From contig DAOVRJ010000001.1 in NCBI GenBank assembly GCA_030628225.1, forward strand, positions 1-40,158: a stretch of 40,158 nt of DNA. Reading direction: 5' to 3'. Below the pieces are notes generated by a model that ran no database searches, was not told the DNA's origin, and saw only the letters and a list, made by a program, of their open reading frames with translations. Position 1 is the first letter of the stretch. Each line of letters begins with the position of its first letter. Shown here piece after piece: positions 1-23,380 of the stretch. Source of the stretch: Candidatus Zixiibacteriota bacterium. GTDB lineage: Bacteria; SM23-81. Position numbers and translations under genes: made by a program.

Positions 1-3
1 CTC

Positions 4-600
4 TCATCCCTTCCCCACCTCACTATCCAGCCGGCGGATCATTCCCAACAACCCCACCAGCGGCAACCCCACCACATTATAAAAACAGCCATCGATCCCG
101 CTGATCAAAAGCGCTCCTCTCCCCTGAATCCCATACGCCCCGGCCTTGTCCAGGGGCTCGCCGGTGGCCACGTACTCGGCGATCTCCTCATCGGCCAGCT
201 CCCGGAAGGTCACCTCGGTGCGTTCCACGTGAGAGATCCAGATATCTCCAGCTACGTCTATGAGCGTCAAGCCGGTATACACCTGGTGAGTTCTGCCGTT
301 GAGCTTTCTGAGCATCGCGGCGGCCTCCCGTTTGCCGGCAGGTTTTCCCAGAATTTCCCCGTCCAGTACCACCACGGTGTCCGCACCCAGAACCACACCG
401 GAGGAGAGTCTTTGGGCCACATCCCGAGCCTTGCGACGGGACAGCTCCACCACGTGGTCCTCGGGATCCACCGGGGCATCCACATCCTCGCTGACCCCGC
501 TGACCATCCGGCGGAAAGGAATGCCGGCCAGGTCCAGCAAATCCGCCCTTCTGGGAGATGCCGAGGCCAGTATCAGCTTGTCCTCTCGAGTCCAGCTCAT
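4..600 (-). CDS. maf: Maf-like nucleoside triphosphate pyrophosphatase (septum-formation-inhibitor family)
   Basis: 198-aa ORF with the hallmark Maf/YhdE motifs: [14 protein letters not shown] near the N-terminus, VLGADTVV mid-protein and [10 protein letters not shown] near the C-terminus. Its ATG overlaps the dtd stop (ATGA), implying a dtd-maf operon. Confidence 0.9.
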
Positions 601-1046
601 CGTTCCCTCTCCGATTCAAGGATCAGAGTTACCGGGCCATCGTTGTGGATATTCACGGACATGCGGGCTCCGAAACGACCCGTCTCCACCCTCAGTCCGC
701 TTTGCCGCAGAATGGCCACGAAATGCTCATACAGGGGCTCGGCCTTATCGGGTGGCGCCGCTTCAGTAAAGCTGGGCCGGCGTCCCTTGCGGCAATCCCC
801 GTAAAGGGTAAACTGGGAGATGGCCAGGATCTCCCCACCCACCTCCAGGACGGAGCGGTTCATCTTGCCCTGCTCATCCTCGAAGATGCGCAGGTGGAGA
901 CATTTTTCGGCCAGATAGCGGGCCTGGGACTCTGTATCATCGTGTCCGATGCCCACTAAGAGTACCAATCCCAGGCCGATCCGGCCGATGGATTGACCAT
1001 CAACTGTGACCTCTGCTTCGCTGACCCGTTGTAGGACGATTTTCAT
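597..1046 (-). CDS. dtd: D-aminoacyl-tRNA deacylase
   Basis: 149-aa ORF starting MKIVLQRV. The SQFTLYGD and NDGPVT motifs and the ~150-aa size are diagnostic of Dtd. Confidence 0.92.
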
Positions 1047-1091
1047 GAATCATCTCCCCCTGAGTGGTCTCACAGGAAGCTCGTCTGCCGA

Positions 1092-1336
1092 GGTTCGAGA
1101 TTCGAGATTCGTTGAAAGAAAAACCGATGCTGGATTCTGGATGCTGGATCCTGGATTAAAGTCGAGAAGAACGGGATTCGGGATCCGGGATTCGTAAAGG
1201 CAAAGTTCAACTGCTTTTTCCATTTTGCATTTTTCACTTTGCACTTTTCATTTTGCATTTCACTTTTTGCATACTGCCTCCTGCCGACTGCTTACTGCTT
1301 ACTGGTTTTCTATTGCCATTGCTATTGCCTATTTAT
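1092..1336. repeat. Composite array of six adjacent short (mostly 7-nt) tandem-repeat blocks filling the UbiA/dtd intergenic region
   Basis: Read directly from the DNA. Block A 1092-1112: GGTTCGA/GATTCGA/GATTCGT. Block B 1124-1158: (CCGATGC)/TGGATTC/TGGATGC/TGGATCC/TGGATTA. Block C 1173-1193: GGGATTC/GGGATCC/GGGATTC. Block D 1214-1271: eight T3-5(G)CA(C) units (TTTTGCA, TTTTTCAC, TTTGCAC, TTTTCA, TTTTGCA, TTTCAC, TTTTTGCA). Block E 1274-1308: CTGCCTC/CTGCCGA/CTGCTTA/CTGCTTA/CTGGTTT in exact 7-nt register. Block F 1311-1336: TATTGCC/ATTGC/TATTGCC/TATTTAT. Confidence 0.85.
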
Positions 1337-1338
1337 TT

Positions 1339-2178
1339 TCAAACCCAAACCCCGGCCAAAATCGCCGCCAGTCCCACCCACATATCCACTTTGAGTAATA
1401 GGCTCAACCGCCCCAAATGGTCAGGACTGGAATTCCGCTGGGAAGAGAAAATCACGTACAGCAGGGGAAAATCCACACCGAACACCACGATGATCAGATA
1501 GGCCAGCGAGTAGTGGCCGACGAGATGAGGTATCGGTGTGGCTGCAATCAATATACTGAAGGCCAGACCAGCCCATCGGAGGGCGGCGGGCACACCCACC
1601 ACCGCCGGCAGGGTCCGGGCCCCGGCTGCTCGATCGCCCACCTCATCCTGGGCATCCTTGAGGATCTCCCGTCCCAGATGGAAGAGAAAAGCGAAGCACG
1701 CCGGAACCAGGGCCGGGCCTGGTCTGCCTGTGGCGATCCCTCCATAGAGGAAAGCCAGGCCAGCGGCCAGAGCCACTGCCAGGTTGCCCCACAGAGGCAT
1801 CCTCTTCAGCCAGGCGCTGTAAGCCACCAGCAGAAGGACCACCAGGATGGCGATCAGCAACCCCCAGAGGCCAAGAGCGGGGCTGATGGCCACGCCCAGC
1901 ACCATGAGCATCACTGAAAAAGCGGTCGCCTGGGACCTGGTTAGCCGACCGGAGGGCAGGGGCCTGCCGGGCTTGTTGACCCGGTCTATCTGCACATCGA
2001 AAACATCGTTAATGGCGTTTGCCCCGCCGGTGATCAGCCCGGCCACCAAACAGGCAAGAAGGACCGGCAAGTCCGGGCGCAGCAAACCAGAGGCCAGAGC
2101 CCCCACCAGCACGGAGCCGGCGGCGATGACCACGTTCAGCGGCCTGCTTAATTGCAGGTAGGCAATCACTCGTCGCAT
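1339..2178 (-). CDS. UbiA-superfamily membrane prenyltransferase (DGGGP-synthase / chlorophyll-synthase-like flavour; substrate unknown)
   Basis: 279-aa polytopic hydrophobic ORF. First Asp-rich motif is NAINDVFDVQID, followed by NKPGRPLPSG. Second motif is KDAQDEVGDRAAGARTLP. It starts 21 nt after the upstream Omp85 gene, with a GGAGGA Shine-Dalgarno (SD) sequence. Confidence 0.8.
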   Translation of the reverse strand: MRRVIAYLQLSRPLNVVIAAGSVLVGALASGLLRPDLPVLLACLVAGLITGGANAINDVFDVQIDRVNKPGRPLPSGRLTRSQATAFSVMLMVLGVAISPALGLWGLLIAILVVLLLVAYSAWLKRMPLWGNLAVALAAGLAFLYGGIATGRPGPALVPACFAFLFHLGREILKDAQDEVGDRAAGARTLPAVVGVPAALRWAGLAFSILIAATPIPHLVGHYSLAYLIIVVFGVDFPLLYVIFSSQRNSSPDHLGRLSLLLKVDMWVGLAAILAGVWV

Positions 2179-2199: not shown

Positions 2200-3984
2200 T
2201 TAAAACTCGTTGATCACCCCAAAATGCACCTTGCCATCGGCCAGACCATCCCCCTCACCCAACCCGTAGTCCACTCCGACGATGCCCAGCCGGGACTCTA
2301 AGCGCAACCCCACCCCATAGCCTATCTTCTCTCCGCTGACCTCCTGAACAACCTCTGTCAGGGGATCTATCTTCCGATAAAAATAGTGGCCCGCGTCCAG
2401 GAATAAAAAGCTCCACGAGCGGCGTCCCAGGAGGAAGCGATACTCCAGGTTGGCCCAGATAATCCGCGAGCCATGAAACTGCTCCTCCCGATAGCCGCGC
2501 AGCGTCCGGGCCCCACCCAGCTTGAACTGCTCGTTTAAGGGTACCACAACCTCATCGCTGTAAATCTCCCCCAGATGAAGGTTAACCGCCACCACCTGAT
2601 GCCGGAAAACCCTCACGTACTGCTCCAGCTCACCGGTGAACTCCGTGCTCTCCACCCGACTCCGGGCAGGCTGATATGTCTCGGTGGCCTGGTTCTTCTT
2701 AAAACGCTGGCGAATCATCGTCTGATATCGGCCGCCTCTCCGGGGGGCCAGAAGGTCATCCCGAATATCCAGCTCCAGCCAGACACCCGCCAGGTAGGAT
2801 CGGCTGCCGGGCAGATCCTGACCACCCTTTATATCGGGTATCACCCTCTGCCAGTCGAACATCACACCCCCTATAACGTGCTCCCCGATGGCGGAGTGGG
2901 CTTGAATTCCCAGATCCGTTTGGGCATATGAAGAATCCTGGTTGACCTGCTGGATGTAGCCACCCAGGGTCAGCGGCAGACCCAGAAGCCATGGTTCCTG
3001 ATAGGCGAAGCGCAGTTTTGAGGAAAGAGGATCGCACCGGCTCCAGGCGGCCTCCACTCTCCGGCCCGTGCCCATGAGGTTGCGAAAGGAGAGGTCCAAA
3101 AGACCAGTGAAGTATCCGTCCCGTTGCTCTGTGGCCGGCTGGTAGCCCAGCACTCCGTCGATGGTGTTGGTGCGGCCCTCCACCACCGGAACCACCAGCA
3201 CCGCCAGATCGGAGCGATCACCCGGCAGAACCTGAATTTCTCCCACCTCCCCAAAGAAACCCAGGCGCTGCAACCTTCTATGCCCCTGTTCTATGGCCCG
3301 TTGATTGTACAGGTCACCCTCATCTATGCCCAGCTCCCGGCAGATGACGGAGCTTTTAGTGATGGTGTTGCCCTCCGGCACCACCGACTGCACCCGGACC
3401 CGAGCACCTTCCTGGATGGTTAATCCAAAATCCAGGCGATCCTCCGCGGTCAACCGGAACTGAGTCACCTGGATCTGGCAGTAGGGATGGCCGTTGTTCT
3501 CGTAGACTGTCAACAGCCTCTGCACATCGGCCTCCAGAACATCGCCGCGGAAGACCTGTCCAGAGCGCAGGTCCATCTGCTCCTCTATGGTTTCCCGCCT
3601 GAGCCATCCCTTGCCCTGTATCTCCACCTGGCCTATACGCACCAGGGGACCTTCGTTAATAAGCAGAGTCAAATCCACTTGGGAAGAATCCTGGTTGAAA
3701 CTAAGCTTCGGCGGGAAGATATGCGCCCGAAGATAGCCCTCATCCCGGTACCAGCTGAGCAGACTTTGGATATCTCCCTCCAGGATGGCATCGTCCAAAG
3801 GCCGGCCCTCCCGGGTGACCATCATCTTCAAAATGGTCCGCGTCGAGGCGGCCTTGTGGCCCTGAATGTCCATCTTATGCAGCAGAGCTTGATCCTCTCC
3901 GGCGGCGCCGGACCACCAGCCCAACTGAAGGGAAAGCAAGATGAGCAAAAATGCCCTTCTGGCGATATCCACCATTTGTTCCAT
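2200..3984 (-). CDS. Omp85/BamA-family outer-membrane protein, TamA-sized (about three POTRA domains plus barrel)
   Basis: 594 aa with a signal peptide (AFLLILLSLQLGWWSGAAG). Three POTRA-like units end in LLINEGP, LTIQEGA and PVVEGR. The barrel carries the loop-6-type motif KLGGARTLRGY...NLEYRF and ends in an aromatic residue (...HFGVINEF). Confidence 0.8.
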   Translation of the reverse strand: MEQMVDIARRAFLLILLSLQLGWWSGAAGEDQALLHKMDIQGHKAASTRTILKMMVTREGRPLDDAILEGDIQSLLSWYRDEGYLRAHIFPPKLSFNQDSSQVDLTLLINEGPLVRIGQVEIQGKGWLRRETIEEQMDLRSGQVFRGDVLEADVQRLLTVYENNGHPYCQIQVTQFRLTAEDRLDFGLTIQEGARVRVQSVVPEGNTITKSSVICRELGIDEGDLYNQRAIEQGHRRLQRLGFFGEVGEIQVLPGDRSDLAVLVVPVVEGRTNTIDGVLGYQPATEQRDGYFTGLLDLSFRNLMGTGRRVEAAWSRCDPLSSKLRFAYQEPWLLGLPLTLGGYIQQVNQDSSYAQTDLGIQAHSAIGEHVIGGVMFDWQRVIPDIKGGQDLPGSRSYLAGVWLELDIRDDLLAPRRGGRYQTMIRQRFKKNQATETYQPARSRVESTEFTGELEQYVRVFRHQVVAVNLHLGEIYSDEVVVPLNEQFKLGGARTLRGYREEQFHGSRIIWANLEYRFLLGRRSWSFLFLDAGHYFYRKIDPLTEVVQEVSGEKIGYGVGLRLESRLGIVGVDYGLGEGDGLADGKVHFGVINEF

Positions 3985-7498: not shown

Positions 7499-8515
7499 TC
7501 ACAGGCCTTCTGTTTCGGCTCGGCGCACGATCTGGAAGATCTGAACTCGCCCGTTCCCGGAGTCCAAGACGCAGAGCAAATCCGTGCCCGAGACGGCCAG
7601 GTCTATCGGCGAATGAAAGGATCCGTAGCCCGTGCCGGCGGCGCCCAGGCTGAAGAGCAATTCGCCCTGGGAGCTGAAGACGCAGATGCGATCATGGCCG
7701 GTATCGGCAACATAGAGATAGCCCTGGCCATCGGTTGCCACACCCTTCGGTCCCTTGAGCAACCCCTGACCTATGCTGCCCAGAAAACTGCCGAAGGCAT
7801 CGTAACGAGCGATGCGGTCATTTCCTGTGTCGGCAACGAAGACGGCGCTCCCGCGGCCGATTGTCAGACCCGCTGGTGTTCTTAGACGATCCGCAGCAGA
7901 GGTAAATCCTCCGAAGGAGCGTTCCAGCTCTCCGAAAGAGGTCAGTATCAACACCTGCTCGTTCTCCTCATCGCTGACATACAGCTCTCCTGTGGGAGCC
8001 ATCTCGATGTCCCGCAGGAATCCGAAAGCCAACGGCTCTTCCTCCTCCGTGGATGGTGGGATGCTGGACAGAAAGTTCAGATAGCGGTCAAAACGCTGCA
8101 CGCGCCGATTTTGAGAATCCACAACATAGATGTTTAACCCCTCCCGAGCAGACAGGCCCGTGGGCCGATTGAACCGTCCCTCACCCCATCCGAATCCCCC
8201 GATCTCCTCGATGAGGCGGCCGGCGGAATCGAATTTCTGCACCCGGTGATTCCCCGTGTCGGCCACATAGATATTCCCCTCTGGATCGACGGAGATACCC
8301 TGGGGATTCAGGAATTGGCCAGGACCGCTCCCGGGACTGCCGAAGGTCCGCTGAAACTTCAGCGCCCGGGGTGGAACGGAATGACCCGGCGCCCACCAGG
8401 AGGACCCGCTCTTTGTTCCGCTCGCCGAACAGGCCAGATATGAGCCAACGGCTAAAATCAACGCCGATGAAATCCAAATTGGAAAGTTCTGTCTGTGAAA
8501 TAGATCACTGAACAT
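7499..8515 (-). CDS. NHL-repeat beta-propeller protein with Cys-containing signal sequence (possible lipoprotein)
   Basis: Five to six NHL repeats are visible: GQFLNPQGISVDPEGNIYVADTGNHRVQKFD, GRFNRPTGLSAREGLNIYVVDSQNRRVQRFD, LRTPAGLTIGRGSAVFVADTGNDRIARYD, LKGPKGVATDGQGYLYVADTGHDRICVF and FHSPIDLAVSGTDLLCVLDSGNGRVQIFQ. I chose the ATG at 8515 (MFSDLF..., hydrophobic stretch ending SYLAC/S, GGAGAG upstream) as the start. The maximal ORF reaches 8614. Confidence 0.8.
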   Translation of the reverse strand: MFSDLFHRQNFPIWISSALILAVGSYLACSASGTKSGSSWWAPGHSVPPRALKFQRTFGSPGSGPGQFLNPQGISVDPEGNIYVADTGNHRVQKFDSAGRLIEEIGGFGWGEGRFNRPTGLSAREGLNIYVVDSQNRRVQRFDRYLNFLSSIPPSTEEEEPLAFGFLRDIEMAPTGELYVSDEENEQVLILTSFGELERSFGGFTSAADRLRTPAGLTIGRGSAVFVADTGNDRIARYDAFGSFLGSIGQGLLKGPKGVATDGQGYLYVADTGHDRICVFSSQGELLFSLGAAGTGYGSFHSPIDLAVSGTDLLCVLDSGNGRVQIFQIVRRAETEGL

Positions 8516-8648
8516 GGCCTTTGCTCTCCGGAGAAATGTGTGGAGACAGCCAGCACGTCCAAGAGGTATTTGGGACCAGGAAAGGAGGGAACTTGGATGG
8601 CAGGAAAACGGCACAAGGCTAATGGGGGGTGCAAATCTACCGCTCGGC

Positions 8649-22966: not shown

Positions 22967-23380
22967 CTACGACTGGCTTTTTTTCTTTTTTCTTGGTTTG
23001 GTTTTCTGGTTACTTTTTGATGTCTTCGGCCTTGCGTCCGTCTCCTTGGCCTGGGGTTTGACTTTCTGTTCGGCCTCCTTTTCCTCCTTCTCCTCTTCTT
23101 CCACCACCTTCATCTCATCCACGTAGTTCATTCGCAATTCGAACAAAACTCGCTCAACAAGCTTCTTCTCTCTCTCGTTGAGATTGCCCCTGGTTTTTTG
23201 TTCAAGCATGGACACGATGTCGATGGAGTGCTTGGCCTGGACCATGTCCTTCTCCACCTTATTGGTCAAAGGGTTCACGATCTTGCCCATCTGCTGCATG
23301 GCGGTTGCCTGAAATGTAAAAACCAGCTGCGTAAAGTAGGCCTCGTTGATCTCCTCCTGTGAGTATTTCTCAGCCATCAT
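22967..23380 (-). CDS. DUF1844-like protein with Lys/Glu-rich C-terminal tail
   Basis: Core FTQLVFTFQATAMQQMGKIVNPLTNKVEKDMVQAKHSIDIVSMLEQKTRGNL...LFELRMNYV matches my recollection of the DUF1844 pattern. The start ATGATG at 23380/23377 is preceded by TAAGGAGGAAC. The maximal ORF to 23428 is probably over-extended. Confidence 0.6.
   Translation of the reverse strand: MMAEKYSQEEINEAYFTQLVFTFQATAMQQMGKIVNPLTNKVEKDMVQAKHSIDIVSMLEQKTRGNLNEREKKLVERVLFELRMNYVDEMKVVEEEEKEEKEAEQKVKPQAKETDARPKTSKSNQKTKPRKKKKSQS

Follow-up and report, generated by a model that had tools for sequence, protein, structure and literature searches.

The 292-bp spacer between ubiA and dtd in this Candidatus Zixiibacteriota genome is, with a probability that we put at roughly 70%, a mosaic member, devoid of genes, of a lineage-wide family of heptanucleotide-repeat modules, that is, a hypervariable spacer that likely has no function specific to dtd and maf. 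The DNA analyzed, referred to below as the window, is a stretch of 40,158 nt; it represents contig C166, the longest contig of a 2.34-Mb assembly of 306 contigs with a G+C content of 54.5%. Under the reading that we favor, a module would be built from short imperfect arrays of 3–9 units, drawn from a handful of 7-nt families, joined by conserved linkers and following one another in a recurring order. Such an element would have inserted or grown directly after the ubiA stop codon, in an ancestrally abutting and presumably co-transcribed gene pair, and would then have changed in two ways: by slippage of 7 and 14 nt inside blocks, and by the swap or replacement of whole blocks, probably when arrays that share a unit but lie at different sites recombine with each other. 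In the full-length form of the module, two inverted arrays of the same unit would bracket a small PF05635 gene; in the miniature form, two such arrays would bracket a loop of 36–100 nt; and the window copy would consist of unpaired "solo" arms, with transcription reading through them and dtd keeping its own Shine–Dalgarno site.

Architecture of the ubiA–dtd spacer

The spacer occupies positions 1047–1338, between the stop codon of the UbiA gene (stop at 1339–1341; gene at 2178..1339 on the minus strand, PF01040 at 148 bits in Pfam) and the ATG of dtd at 1046 (gene at 1046..597, minus strand), which encodes a 149-aa PF02580 (Tyr_Deacylase) protein. An Omp85/POTRA protein is encoded by the next gene upstream of UbiA, and Maf follows dtd. 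According to Tandem Repeats Finder (TRF), approximately 194 bp of the 292-bp gap consists of tandem arrays, and the linkers between these arrays are also repeated at other sites in the genome. The sole unique part of the gap is the dtd leader at approximately 1047–1088 (minus strand), which lies outside the repeat element, is homologous to the 46-bp ubiA–dtd spacer of an array-free relative (G002, introduced below), and carries a Shine–Dalgarno sequence (GGGGGAG, 1054–1060) 7 nt before the ATG; the array blocks stop 43 nt short of that ATG.

The arrays themselves comprise six adjoining blocks at 1089–1333, five with a period of 7 and one with a period of 6–7, so that the six consecutive blocks of the preliminary description are recovered by TRF to within 3 nt. 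Read on the minus strand, their order is [GGCAATA]n – [GGCAGTA]n – [AAATGNA]n – core GCAGTTGAACTTTGCCTTTACGA – [GAATCCC]n – [ATCCAGN]n – GGTTTTTCTTTCAAC – [GAATCTC]n. Block F (1310–1333; plus-strand unit CTATTG with period 6, 3.8 copies; GGCAATA, GCAATGG, and CAATAG on the minus strand) begins 5 nt after the UbiA stop codon, and precedes block E also in a tandem pair of elements on contig C209 and in contig L134 of another assembly. Block E (1268–1304; unit TGCCTAC, 5.3 copies) reads GGCAGTA, GCAGTAA, or GGCAGGA on the minus strand, and block D (1212–1272; unit TGCATTT, 8.7 copies) reads as A-rich AAATGCA, AAAGTGA, or AAAATGA. The non-tandem "family A" core GCAGTTGAACTTTGCCTTTACGA (1192..1214, minus strand) recurs genome-wide, and is followed, as in copies on C293, C197, C181, C88, and C161, by block C (1172–1194; unit CGGGATT, 3.3 copies), with GAATCCC, GGATCCC, and GAATCCC on the minus strand. 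Block B (1126–1156; unit GATGCTG, 4.4 copies) belongs to the GGATNCT family and reads ATCCAGG, ATCCAGC, ATCCAGA, and ATCCAGC. It is separated by the linker GGTTTTTCTTTCAAC (1112..1125, minus strand) from block A (1089–1111; unit CGAGATT, 3.3 copies), which belongs to the CGAGAYT family and reads GAATCTC, GAATCTC, and GAACCTC. Near-identical copies of this linker lie between ATCCAGN and GARTCTC blocks at other sites, and TGTTTTCTTCAC occupies the matching position in the orthologous spacer of a sister genus (G003). All of the window blocks are imperfect, with 3–9 units each and 72%–93% matches in TRF, and their exact unit numbers are uncertain, the source being a short-read assembly.

The spacer shows little sign of being an expressed or structured element. 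The short open reading frames drawn across the repeats have no Pfam match, in keeping with their earlier dismissal as artefacts. A structured or attenuating RNA had also been suggested for this region; the sense RNA of the spacer is predicted to fold no more stably than shuffled sequences (z = +0.70), and an Rfam scan of the entire window gives nothing at the gathering threshold, both of which count against that suggestion. The two GGATCC sites already recorded in the spacer are present, and pairing between the blocks that contain them accounts for the antisense fold (z = −1.77), which yields no convincing structure. None of the six blocks has an inverted partner within the spacer and, because its arms are unpaired, the window copy would form no stem. 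The dtd–maf promoter or the end of the upstream transcript had been expected here as well, but no promoter-like or terminator-like site is predicted in 1047–1338 using a consensus that may not be this phylum's.

A genome-wide family of heptamer arrays

A family of heptamer arrays extends across the whole genome. Our own stringent array detector was too strict (40 arrays at period 7, 21 at period 4, and 0–7 at periods 5, 6, and 8–12), and TRF was therefore used; over the whole assembly it reports 624 arrays at period 7, along with 152 at period 14, 93 at period 6, and 103 at period 8, compared with 31 period-7 arrays in a genome shuffled within 100-bp windows. The 624 arrays group into 413 clusters, and the dominant unit families are CGAGAYT, AAAATGN, GGATNCT, CTCGAGT, AGGGGTT, and GGCAGTA, with AAATGNA and AGGGRTY also present. 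Of the intergenic regions that measure 30 bp or longer, at least 12% hold arrays; the rate is similar for all gap types (co-directional, 9.8%; divergent, 15%; convergent, 13%), and every heptamer unit is found in both orientations relative to the flanking genes. For 63% of the period-7 arrays, the overlap with crude open reading frame calls is below 20% (10%–30% for periods 6, 9, and 12), a figure that is a lower bound because the crude caller draws spurious reading frames across arrays. The locus-specific element envisaged in the preliminary description thus largely gives way to a dispersed one, with clusters by the hundred and no bias of orientation or position, and the likeness to STRR elements drawn there proves apt, given the excess of period-7 arrays over the shuffled genome and their dispersed, mostly intergenic distribution.

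Arrays also shape the assembly itself: an array is found within 150 bp for 17% of contig ends, versus 3.2% of random 150-bp windows. Because arrays break the assembly, all array counts are lower bounds and the window, as the longest contig, holds just one cluster. The only other period-7 match in the window, TTTTTTC ×2.3 at 22979–22994 (score 32), is probably a chance match outside the heptamer family. At its start (window positions 1–4), the contig extends only 3 nt beyond the stop codon of maf; heptamer arrays are present downstream of maf in two relatives, at approximately 780 nt in G003 (L011:6069–6091) and approximately 220 nt in G002 (L012:3273–3304), and the end of the window contig beyond maf is probably a break at another array.

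What distinguishes the family from a scatter of independent arrays is its mosaic grammar. Window blocks with the same order and core are present at approximately 16 other sites, and the 16 copies of the core GCAGTTGAACTTTGCCTTTACGA (allowing up to 5 mismatches) are invariably flanked by the A-rich block on one side and a GAATCYC block on the other. The gene upstream of the core is on the same strand in 12 of 15 copies, which, based on crude gene calls and small numbers, is a weak hint that the family-A core could have a mild 3′-end role. At C209:4895–5137, two complete family-A elements stand in tandem, joined via a GGCAATA block; judging from this arrangement, which L134 shows as well, the population may include a form of the window locus with two copies of the element. 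In a second mosaic family, [GGATNCT]n and [CGAGAYT]n follow each other in alternation, together with two conserved A-rich linkers, and a third has a 38-bp higher-order unit built on AGGGRTY. The arrays of this genome show no preference for four units. Within arrays, identical neighboring units are scarcer than in within-array shuffles, both for GGATNCT (15 observed versus 22.8 ± 2.9) and for CGAGANT (23 versus 35.5 ± 3.2); the units tend to alternate, giving a 14-nt super-period, whereas fresh single-unit slippage would predict the opposite. We considered and set aside the idea that CGAGANT arrays are clusters of GANTC methylation sites, as the variable base is a pyrimidine on one strand in 88% of cases.

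Many arrays are also paired. An inverted partner of the same family lies within 700 bp of 22% of the period-7 arrays, mostly at a distance of 36–100 nt, forming gene-less hairpins. A second small dispersed hairpin repeat, GTCATTCCCGCG...CGGGAATC or GATTCCGGC...GCCGGAATGAC, is embedded between heptamer blocks in several places, for example at C17:3290–3330, at C194:9350–9440, and in the ubiA–dtd spacer of G003 (L011:4000–4100).

We traced the family through the seven species representatives of the phylum in the collection searched, namely this genome (G000), its sister species (G001), two other genera of the same family f1 (G002 and G003), and a sister family (G004–G006). BLAST with the window element gives at least 50 matches in G000, at least 66 in G001, and at least 25 in G003, with 0 in G002 and none or marginal ones in the sister family (2 weak matches in G004). 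Exact-pattern counts give a similar distribution: (CGAGAYT)3 is found 41 times in G000, 6 times in G001, 8 times in G003, and 0 times in 38 other genomes, and (GGATNCT)3 is found 47, 116, and 1 times, respectively, and 0 times in the rest of the phylum. CGAGATT/GAATCTC arrays also occur in unrelated phyla, including Acidobacteriota; there are runs of at least 10 units in Vibrio (L025, L044, and L090), a GAATCTC array in Xanthomonas (L016), many inverted CGAGATT/GAATCTC pairs 40–60 nt apart in the Gemmatimonadaceae MAG SMAG_U8540 (L020, L028, L066, and L077), and three different heptamer arrays back to back in Kuenenia (L029).

The arrays change far more readily than their surroundings. At 16 array loci, the flanks in G000 and G001 are 95%–97% identical, while the arrays themselves show clean 7-, 14-, or 29-nt indels at some loci and have had whole blocks replaced at others; aligned in this way, the two species show the arrays to be hypervariable.

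PF05635 cassettes and the origin of the arrays

PF05635 denotes a 23S-rRNA intervening-sequence (IVS) or Avd-like four-helix-bundle protein. Its genes in G000 number three (130.5, 102.5, and 52.8 bits), and 3 of 3 lie between inverted heptamer arrays. On C188, the gene (1695–2015) is flanked by (GGATACT)4.3 at 1588–1617 on the left and (TATCCAG)4.9 at 2088–2121 on the right; on C49, the gene (2082–2330) lies between (AAATGAA)5.7 at 2021–2060 and (TTTTCAT)5.3 at 2419–2455; and on C261, the gene (3310–3624) has a left arm of AGGGGTT units at 3213–3228 and a right arm of CCCTAAT-type units near 3690. By comparison, when 330-bp segments were drawn at random, both flanks had an array no farther than 120 bp away in 0.07% of trials. 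All 3 of the further family f1 loci checked (two in G001 and one on contig C4 of G003) are likewise situated between inverted arrays, and the arms on C4 of G003 are of CGAGAYT, the unit family of window block A. Three PF05635 loci in G004–G006 have short-period arrays of other unit types on one or both sides.

The window blocks share their units with these arms: block D matches the left arm of the C49 cassette at 31 of 33 positions and its inverted right arm at 30 of 33 (91%–94%), and block B matches an arm of the C188 cassette at 24 of 27 (89%). In this genome, the unit families of the arrays are thus associated with PF05635 cassettes as judged from sequence comparison, and we infer that solo arms derive from cassettes, that transcription reads through them, and that they are neutral. 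As the window element lacks both an inverted partner and an open reading frame, shared unit families are its sole tie to the cassettes. The window copy was accordingly rejected as a full IVS-like cassette, having neither inverted arms nor a PF05635 open reading frame although the arm unit families match, and also as a MITE, since its ends (GGCAATA... and ...GAACCTCGG) are not inverted repeats and it shows no target-site duplication relative to the empty site of G002.

An extension of this reading holds that the arrays are the cis-acting arms of a mobile PF05635 cassette family, that gene-less hairpins and solo mosaics are its non-autonomous members, and that the PF05635 pentamer or a recruited host factor recognizes 7-nt periodic nucleic acid. 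We regard this extension as possible but doubtful. In G002, these arrays are essentially absent and there is no PF05635 gene, while G004–G006 carry 6–16 PF05635 genes and almost none of these arrays; because these genomes are rich in PF05635 yet nearly array-free, the cassettes alone do not explain the proliferation of arrays. Two other candidate agents fared no better: Y1/RAYT transposases are found in G000, G001, and G003 and not in G002, but are abundant in the array-free sister family, and a reverse-transcriptase (telomerase-like) origin was rejected in view of the lack of any RVT_1 gene in family f1.

At C221:7947–8887, an IS200/IS605-type Y1 transposase gene (8242–8604, 141 bits) is flanked by CCCCCGCTCGTGAGCGGGGG hairpins of its own, and this IS200-like element sits inside an A/T-rich (T-rich) heptamer arm, with CATTTTT/CACTTTT units on both sides. 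Such an arrangement suggests that arrays serve as insertion targets for single-strand transposons. The same picture may equally arise in the reverse order, with the arrays in place first and the cassettes and the IS200-like element landing in them later.

The reverse order is also the starting point of a second explanation, under which the arrays are plain slippage microsatellites that arise in tolerant intergenic DNA from a 7-nt replication bias, with cassettes and insertion sequences arriving afterwards. Mrazek reportedly noted in 2007 that the replication machinery favors slips of 7 nt. This explanation would account for the clean 7- and 14-nt indels, the lack of orientation or position bias, the IS200-like element inside an A/T-rich array, and the presence of the GAATCTC unit in Vibrio, Xanthomonas, Gemmatimonadaceae, Acidobacteriota, and Kuenenia, and it agrees with the general excess of heptamers in bacteria (PMC4679880, PMC4692102). 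However, it leaves unexplained the block order, the non-repeat linkers, and the core of approximately 23 nt common to 16 sites, as well as the insertion of the whole mosaic, with all six blocks, at a junction that ancestrally had no gap, and it is at odds with the scarcity of identical neighbors relative to shuffles (23 versus 35.5 ± 3.2 for CGAGANT). We thus consider simple slippage an unlikely origin for the family.

Comparison with repeats described in other bacteria places the family among several known kinds. The STRR heptanucleotide repeats of heterocystous cyanobacteria were reportedly described by Mazel and colleagues in 1990. The units of STRR1–3 are CCCCAGT, TTGGTCA, and CAACAGT. As with STRRs, the arrays here have 7-nt tandem units, fall into several families per genome, adjoin different arrays, and are dispersed in hundreds of mostly intergenic copies; unlike STRRs, they reside in a Zixiibacteriota host, have other unit sequences, and form mosaics with conserved linkers and order that are tied to PF05635 cassettes. 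The BIMEs and REP sequences of enterobacteria are intergenic mosaics of a few short motifs and linkers present in hundreds of copies, the REP motif being an imperfect palindrome of approximately 35 nt. The recurring combinations of short motifs with conserved linkers, in hundreds of copies per genome, are common to both systems, but the elements here are tandem heptamers rather than palindromes, and across this phylum the distribution of the arrays does not follow that of genes for Y1 (RAYT-type) transposases.

Rehm et al. (2015; PMC4692102), who also cite the STRR sequences of cyanobacteria, describe GGGAATC and GGGGA(C/T)T (GGGNATC) heptamer repeats in Xanthomonas and Nostoc. These too are genome-wide intergenic arrays of a few units in variable number, and the units GAATCCC and GAATCTC found here are related to them; in contrast, most of the units here are not G-rich and could not form G-quadruplexes, and there is neither a four-unit preference nor a strand bias. 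TAACTGA direct repeats are known from marine Beggiatoaceae, cyanobacteria, and some Bacteroidetes (MacGregor 2015; PMC4679880), and are similarly abundant intergenic heptamer repeats, of 2–6 units, with a patchy phylogenetic spread. They differ from the present arrays in having a single unit type that clusters immediately before start codons, whereas here there are many types and no positional preference.

The closest parallel to the cassettes is provided by the intervening sequences of 23S rRNA that bear open reading frames, as in Coxiella burnetii and Leptospira, where a PF05635 gene lies between inverted arms with adjoining heptamers whose number varies between strains. In the Coxiella IVS, 2–3 tandem heptamers precede the S23p (PF05635) open reading frame, the number of heptamers is strain-dependent, and RNase III cleaves at the first of them (PMC4990558). 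Unlike these, the cassettes described here are located between protein-coding genes and not in rRNA, and the window copy has neither an open reading frame nor a paired arm.

History of the ubiA–dtd site

The gene order bamA–ubiA–dtd–maf is kept across the phylum, which allows the spacer to be followed through its relatives. In G004–G006, and in eight metagenome loci obtained from a UbiA scan (relatives with at most 48% identity in the best segment; no exact match to the UbiA protein is on record), the ubiA–dtd gap is −2 to 40 bp and holds no heptamer arrays. The gap in G002 is 46 bp, is homologous to the last 46 nt before dtd in the window, and likewise holds none. Because distant relatives have ubiA–dtd gaps of at most 46 bp and no repeats, the alignment of these loci shows the 292-bp spacer, at the level of sequence, to be a derived insertion into an ancestrally abutting gene pair. 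In G003, the gap is approximately 412 bp, on a 127-kb contig, with arrays partly in the same order ([AAGCAGG]n ... [ATCCAGN]n – TGTTTTCTTCAC – [GAGTCTC]n). In G001, the contig ends approximately 190 bp after ubiA and dtd is not assembled, but different, partly 8-nt arrays are present just after ubiA. Arrays are therefore present at this site in G000, G001, and G003 with completely different content, so that a scan of related genomes, as proposed in the preliminary description, finds only array presence to be kept. This shared presence could reflect retention by selection.

Other assemblies bear on the window locus more directly. Four of their contigs encode a Dtd identical to that of the window, of which two terminate precisely at the block A boundary (the upstream edge of the dtd leader). 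In a third, L133, exactly 7 nt (AGTATGC) are missing, relative to the window, where blocks E and D meet, and the fourth, L134, has a block E that is one unit shorter, with a second copy of the element upstream. L133 and L134 join different sequences upstream of block E, and more than 250 nt across blocks A–D are letter-for-letter identical in the three assemblies (window, L133, and L134). The variation in unit number at the window locus consists of such between-assembly differences only. The slipped-strand contingency locus proposed earlier is borne out insofar as slippage is real, on the evidence of the 7-nt loss and the missing unit; its locus specificity does not hold up, slippage being a property of the whole heptamer family. 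The region also differs from a typical phase-variable locus in having blocks of 3–9 imperfect units and not one long near-perfect tract.

These comparisons weigh against the idea that the spacer is a functional cis-element of this locus, namely a contingency switch, a promoter or terminator, or a protein-binding array that tunes dtd–maf expression or ends the upstream envelope operon. Such a role would fit the arrays that G000 and G003 carry in their ubiA–dtd gaps and those shortly after ubiA in G001, along with the unit numbers that vary between assemblies and the position of the family-A core after a same-strand gene in 12 of 15 copies. On the other hand, hundreds of equivalent copies adjoin unrelated genes; the content of the site differs completely among G000, G001, and G003; and G002 and all more distant relatives have no arrays here. 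The spacer, moreover, has no predicted promoter or terminator and matches no Rfam family, its RNA shows no excess of structure, and its short imperfect arrays are unlike known phase-variation tracts. We therefore judge a locus-specific function to be quite improbable. An assembly artefact, in which low-complexity sequence was collapsed or joined chimerically in a short-read metagenome bin, would explain why contig breaks coincide with arrays in this and other assemblies and why L133 and L134 differ upstream of block E, but hardly deserves credence given the identity of more than 250 nt over blocks A–D in three assemblies, the same unit families in two genomes obtained by other studies (G001 and G003), and the placement of the G003 orthologous site on a 127-kb contig.

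Reading the spacer as a gene-less mosaic copy of the heptamer family has several consequences. It removes a tempting but wrong regulatory annotation of the locus, and it explains the fragmentation of the assembly, with contigs breaking at arrays. Heptamer arrays and IVS-like cassettes are already known kinds of element, and the lineage is little studied; what is new here is the mosaic grammar and the clean within-genome association with PF05635 cassettes. Since all PF05635 genes lie between arms, and the arm types are those of the free-standing arrays, the genome provides a data point on why bacteria favor 7-nt tandem repeats. Close relatives show empty, array-only, and gene-bearing sites, making this lineage suited to the question of whether the arrays derive from the cassettes or serve as landing pads for them. 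If the doubtful extension, in which the arrays are the arms of a PF05635 cassette family, were true, it would supply a mechanistic origin for the excess of heptamers across phyla, including the STRRs and the repeats of Xanthomonas and Nostoc.
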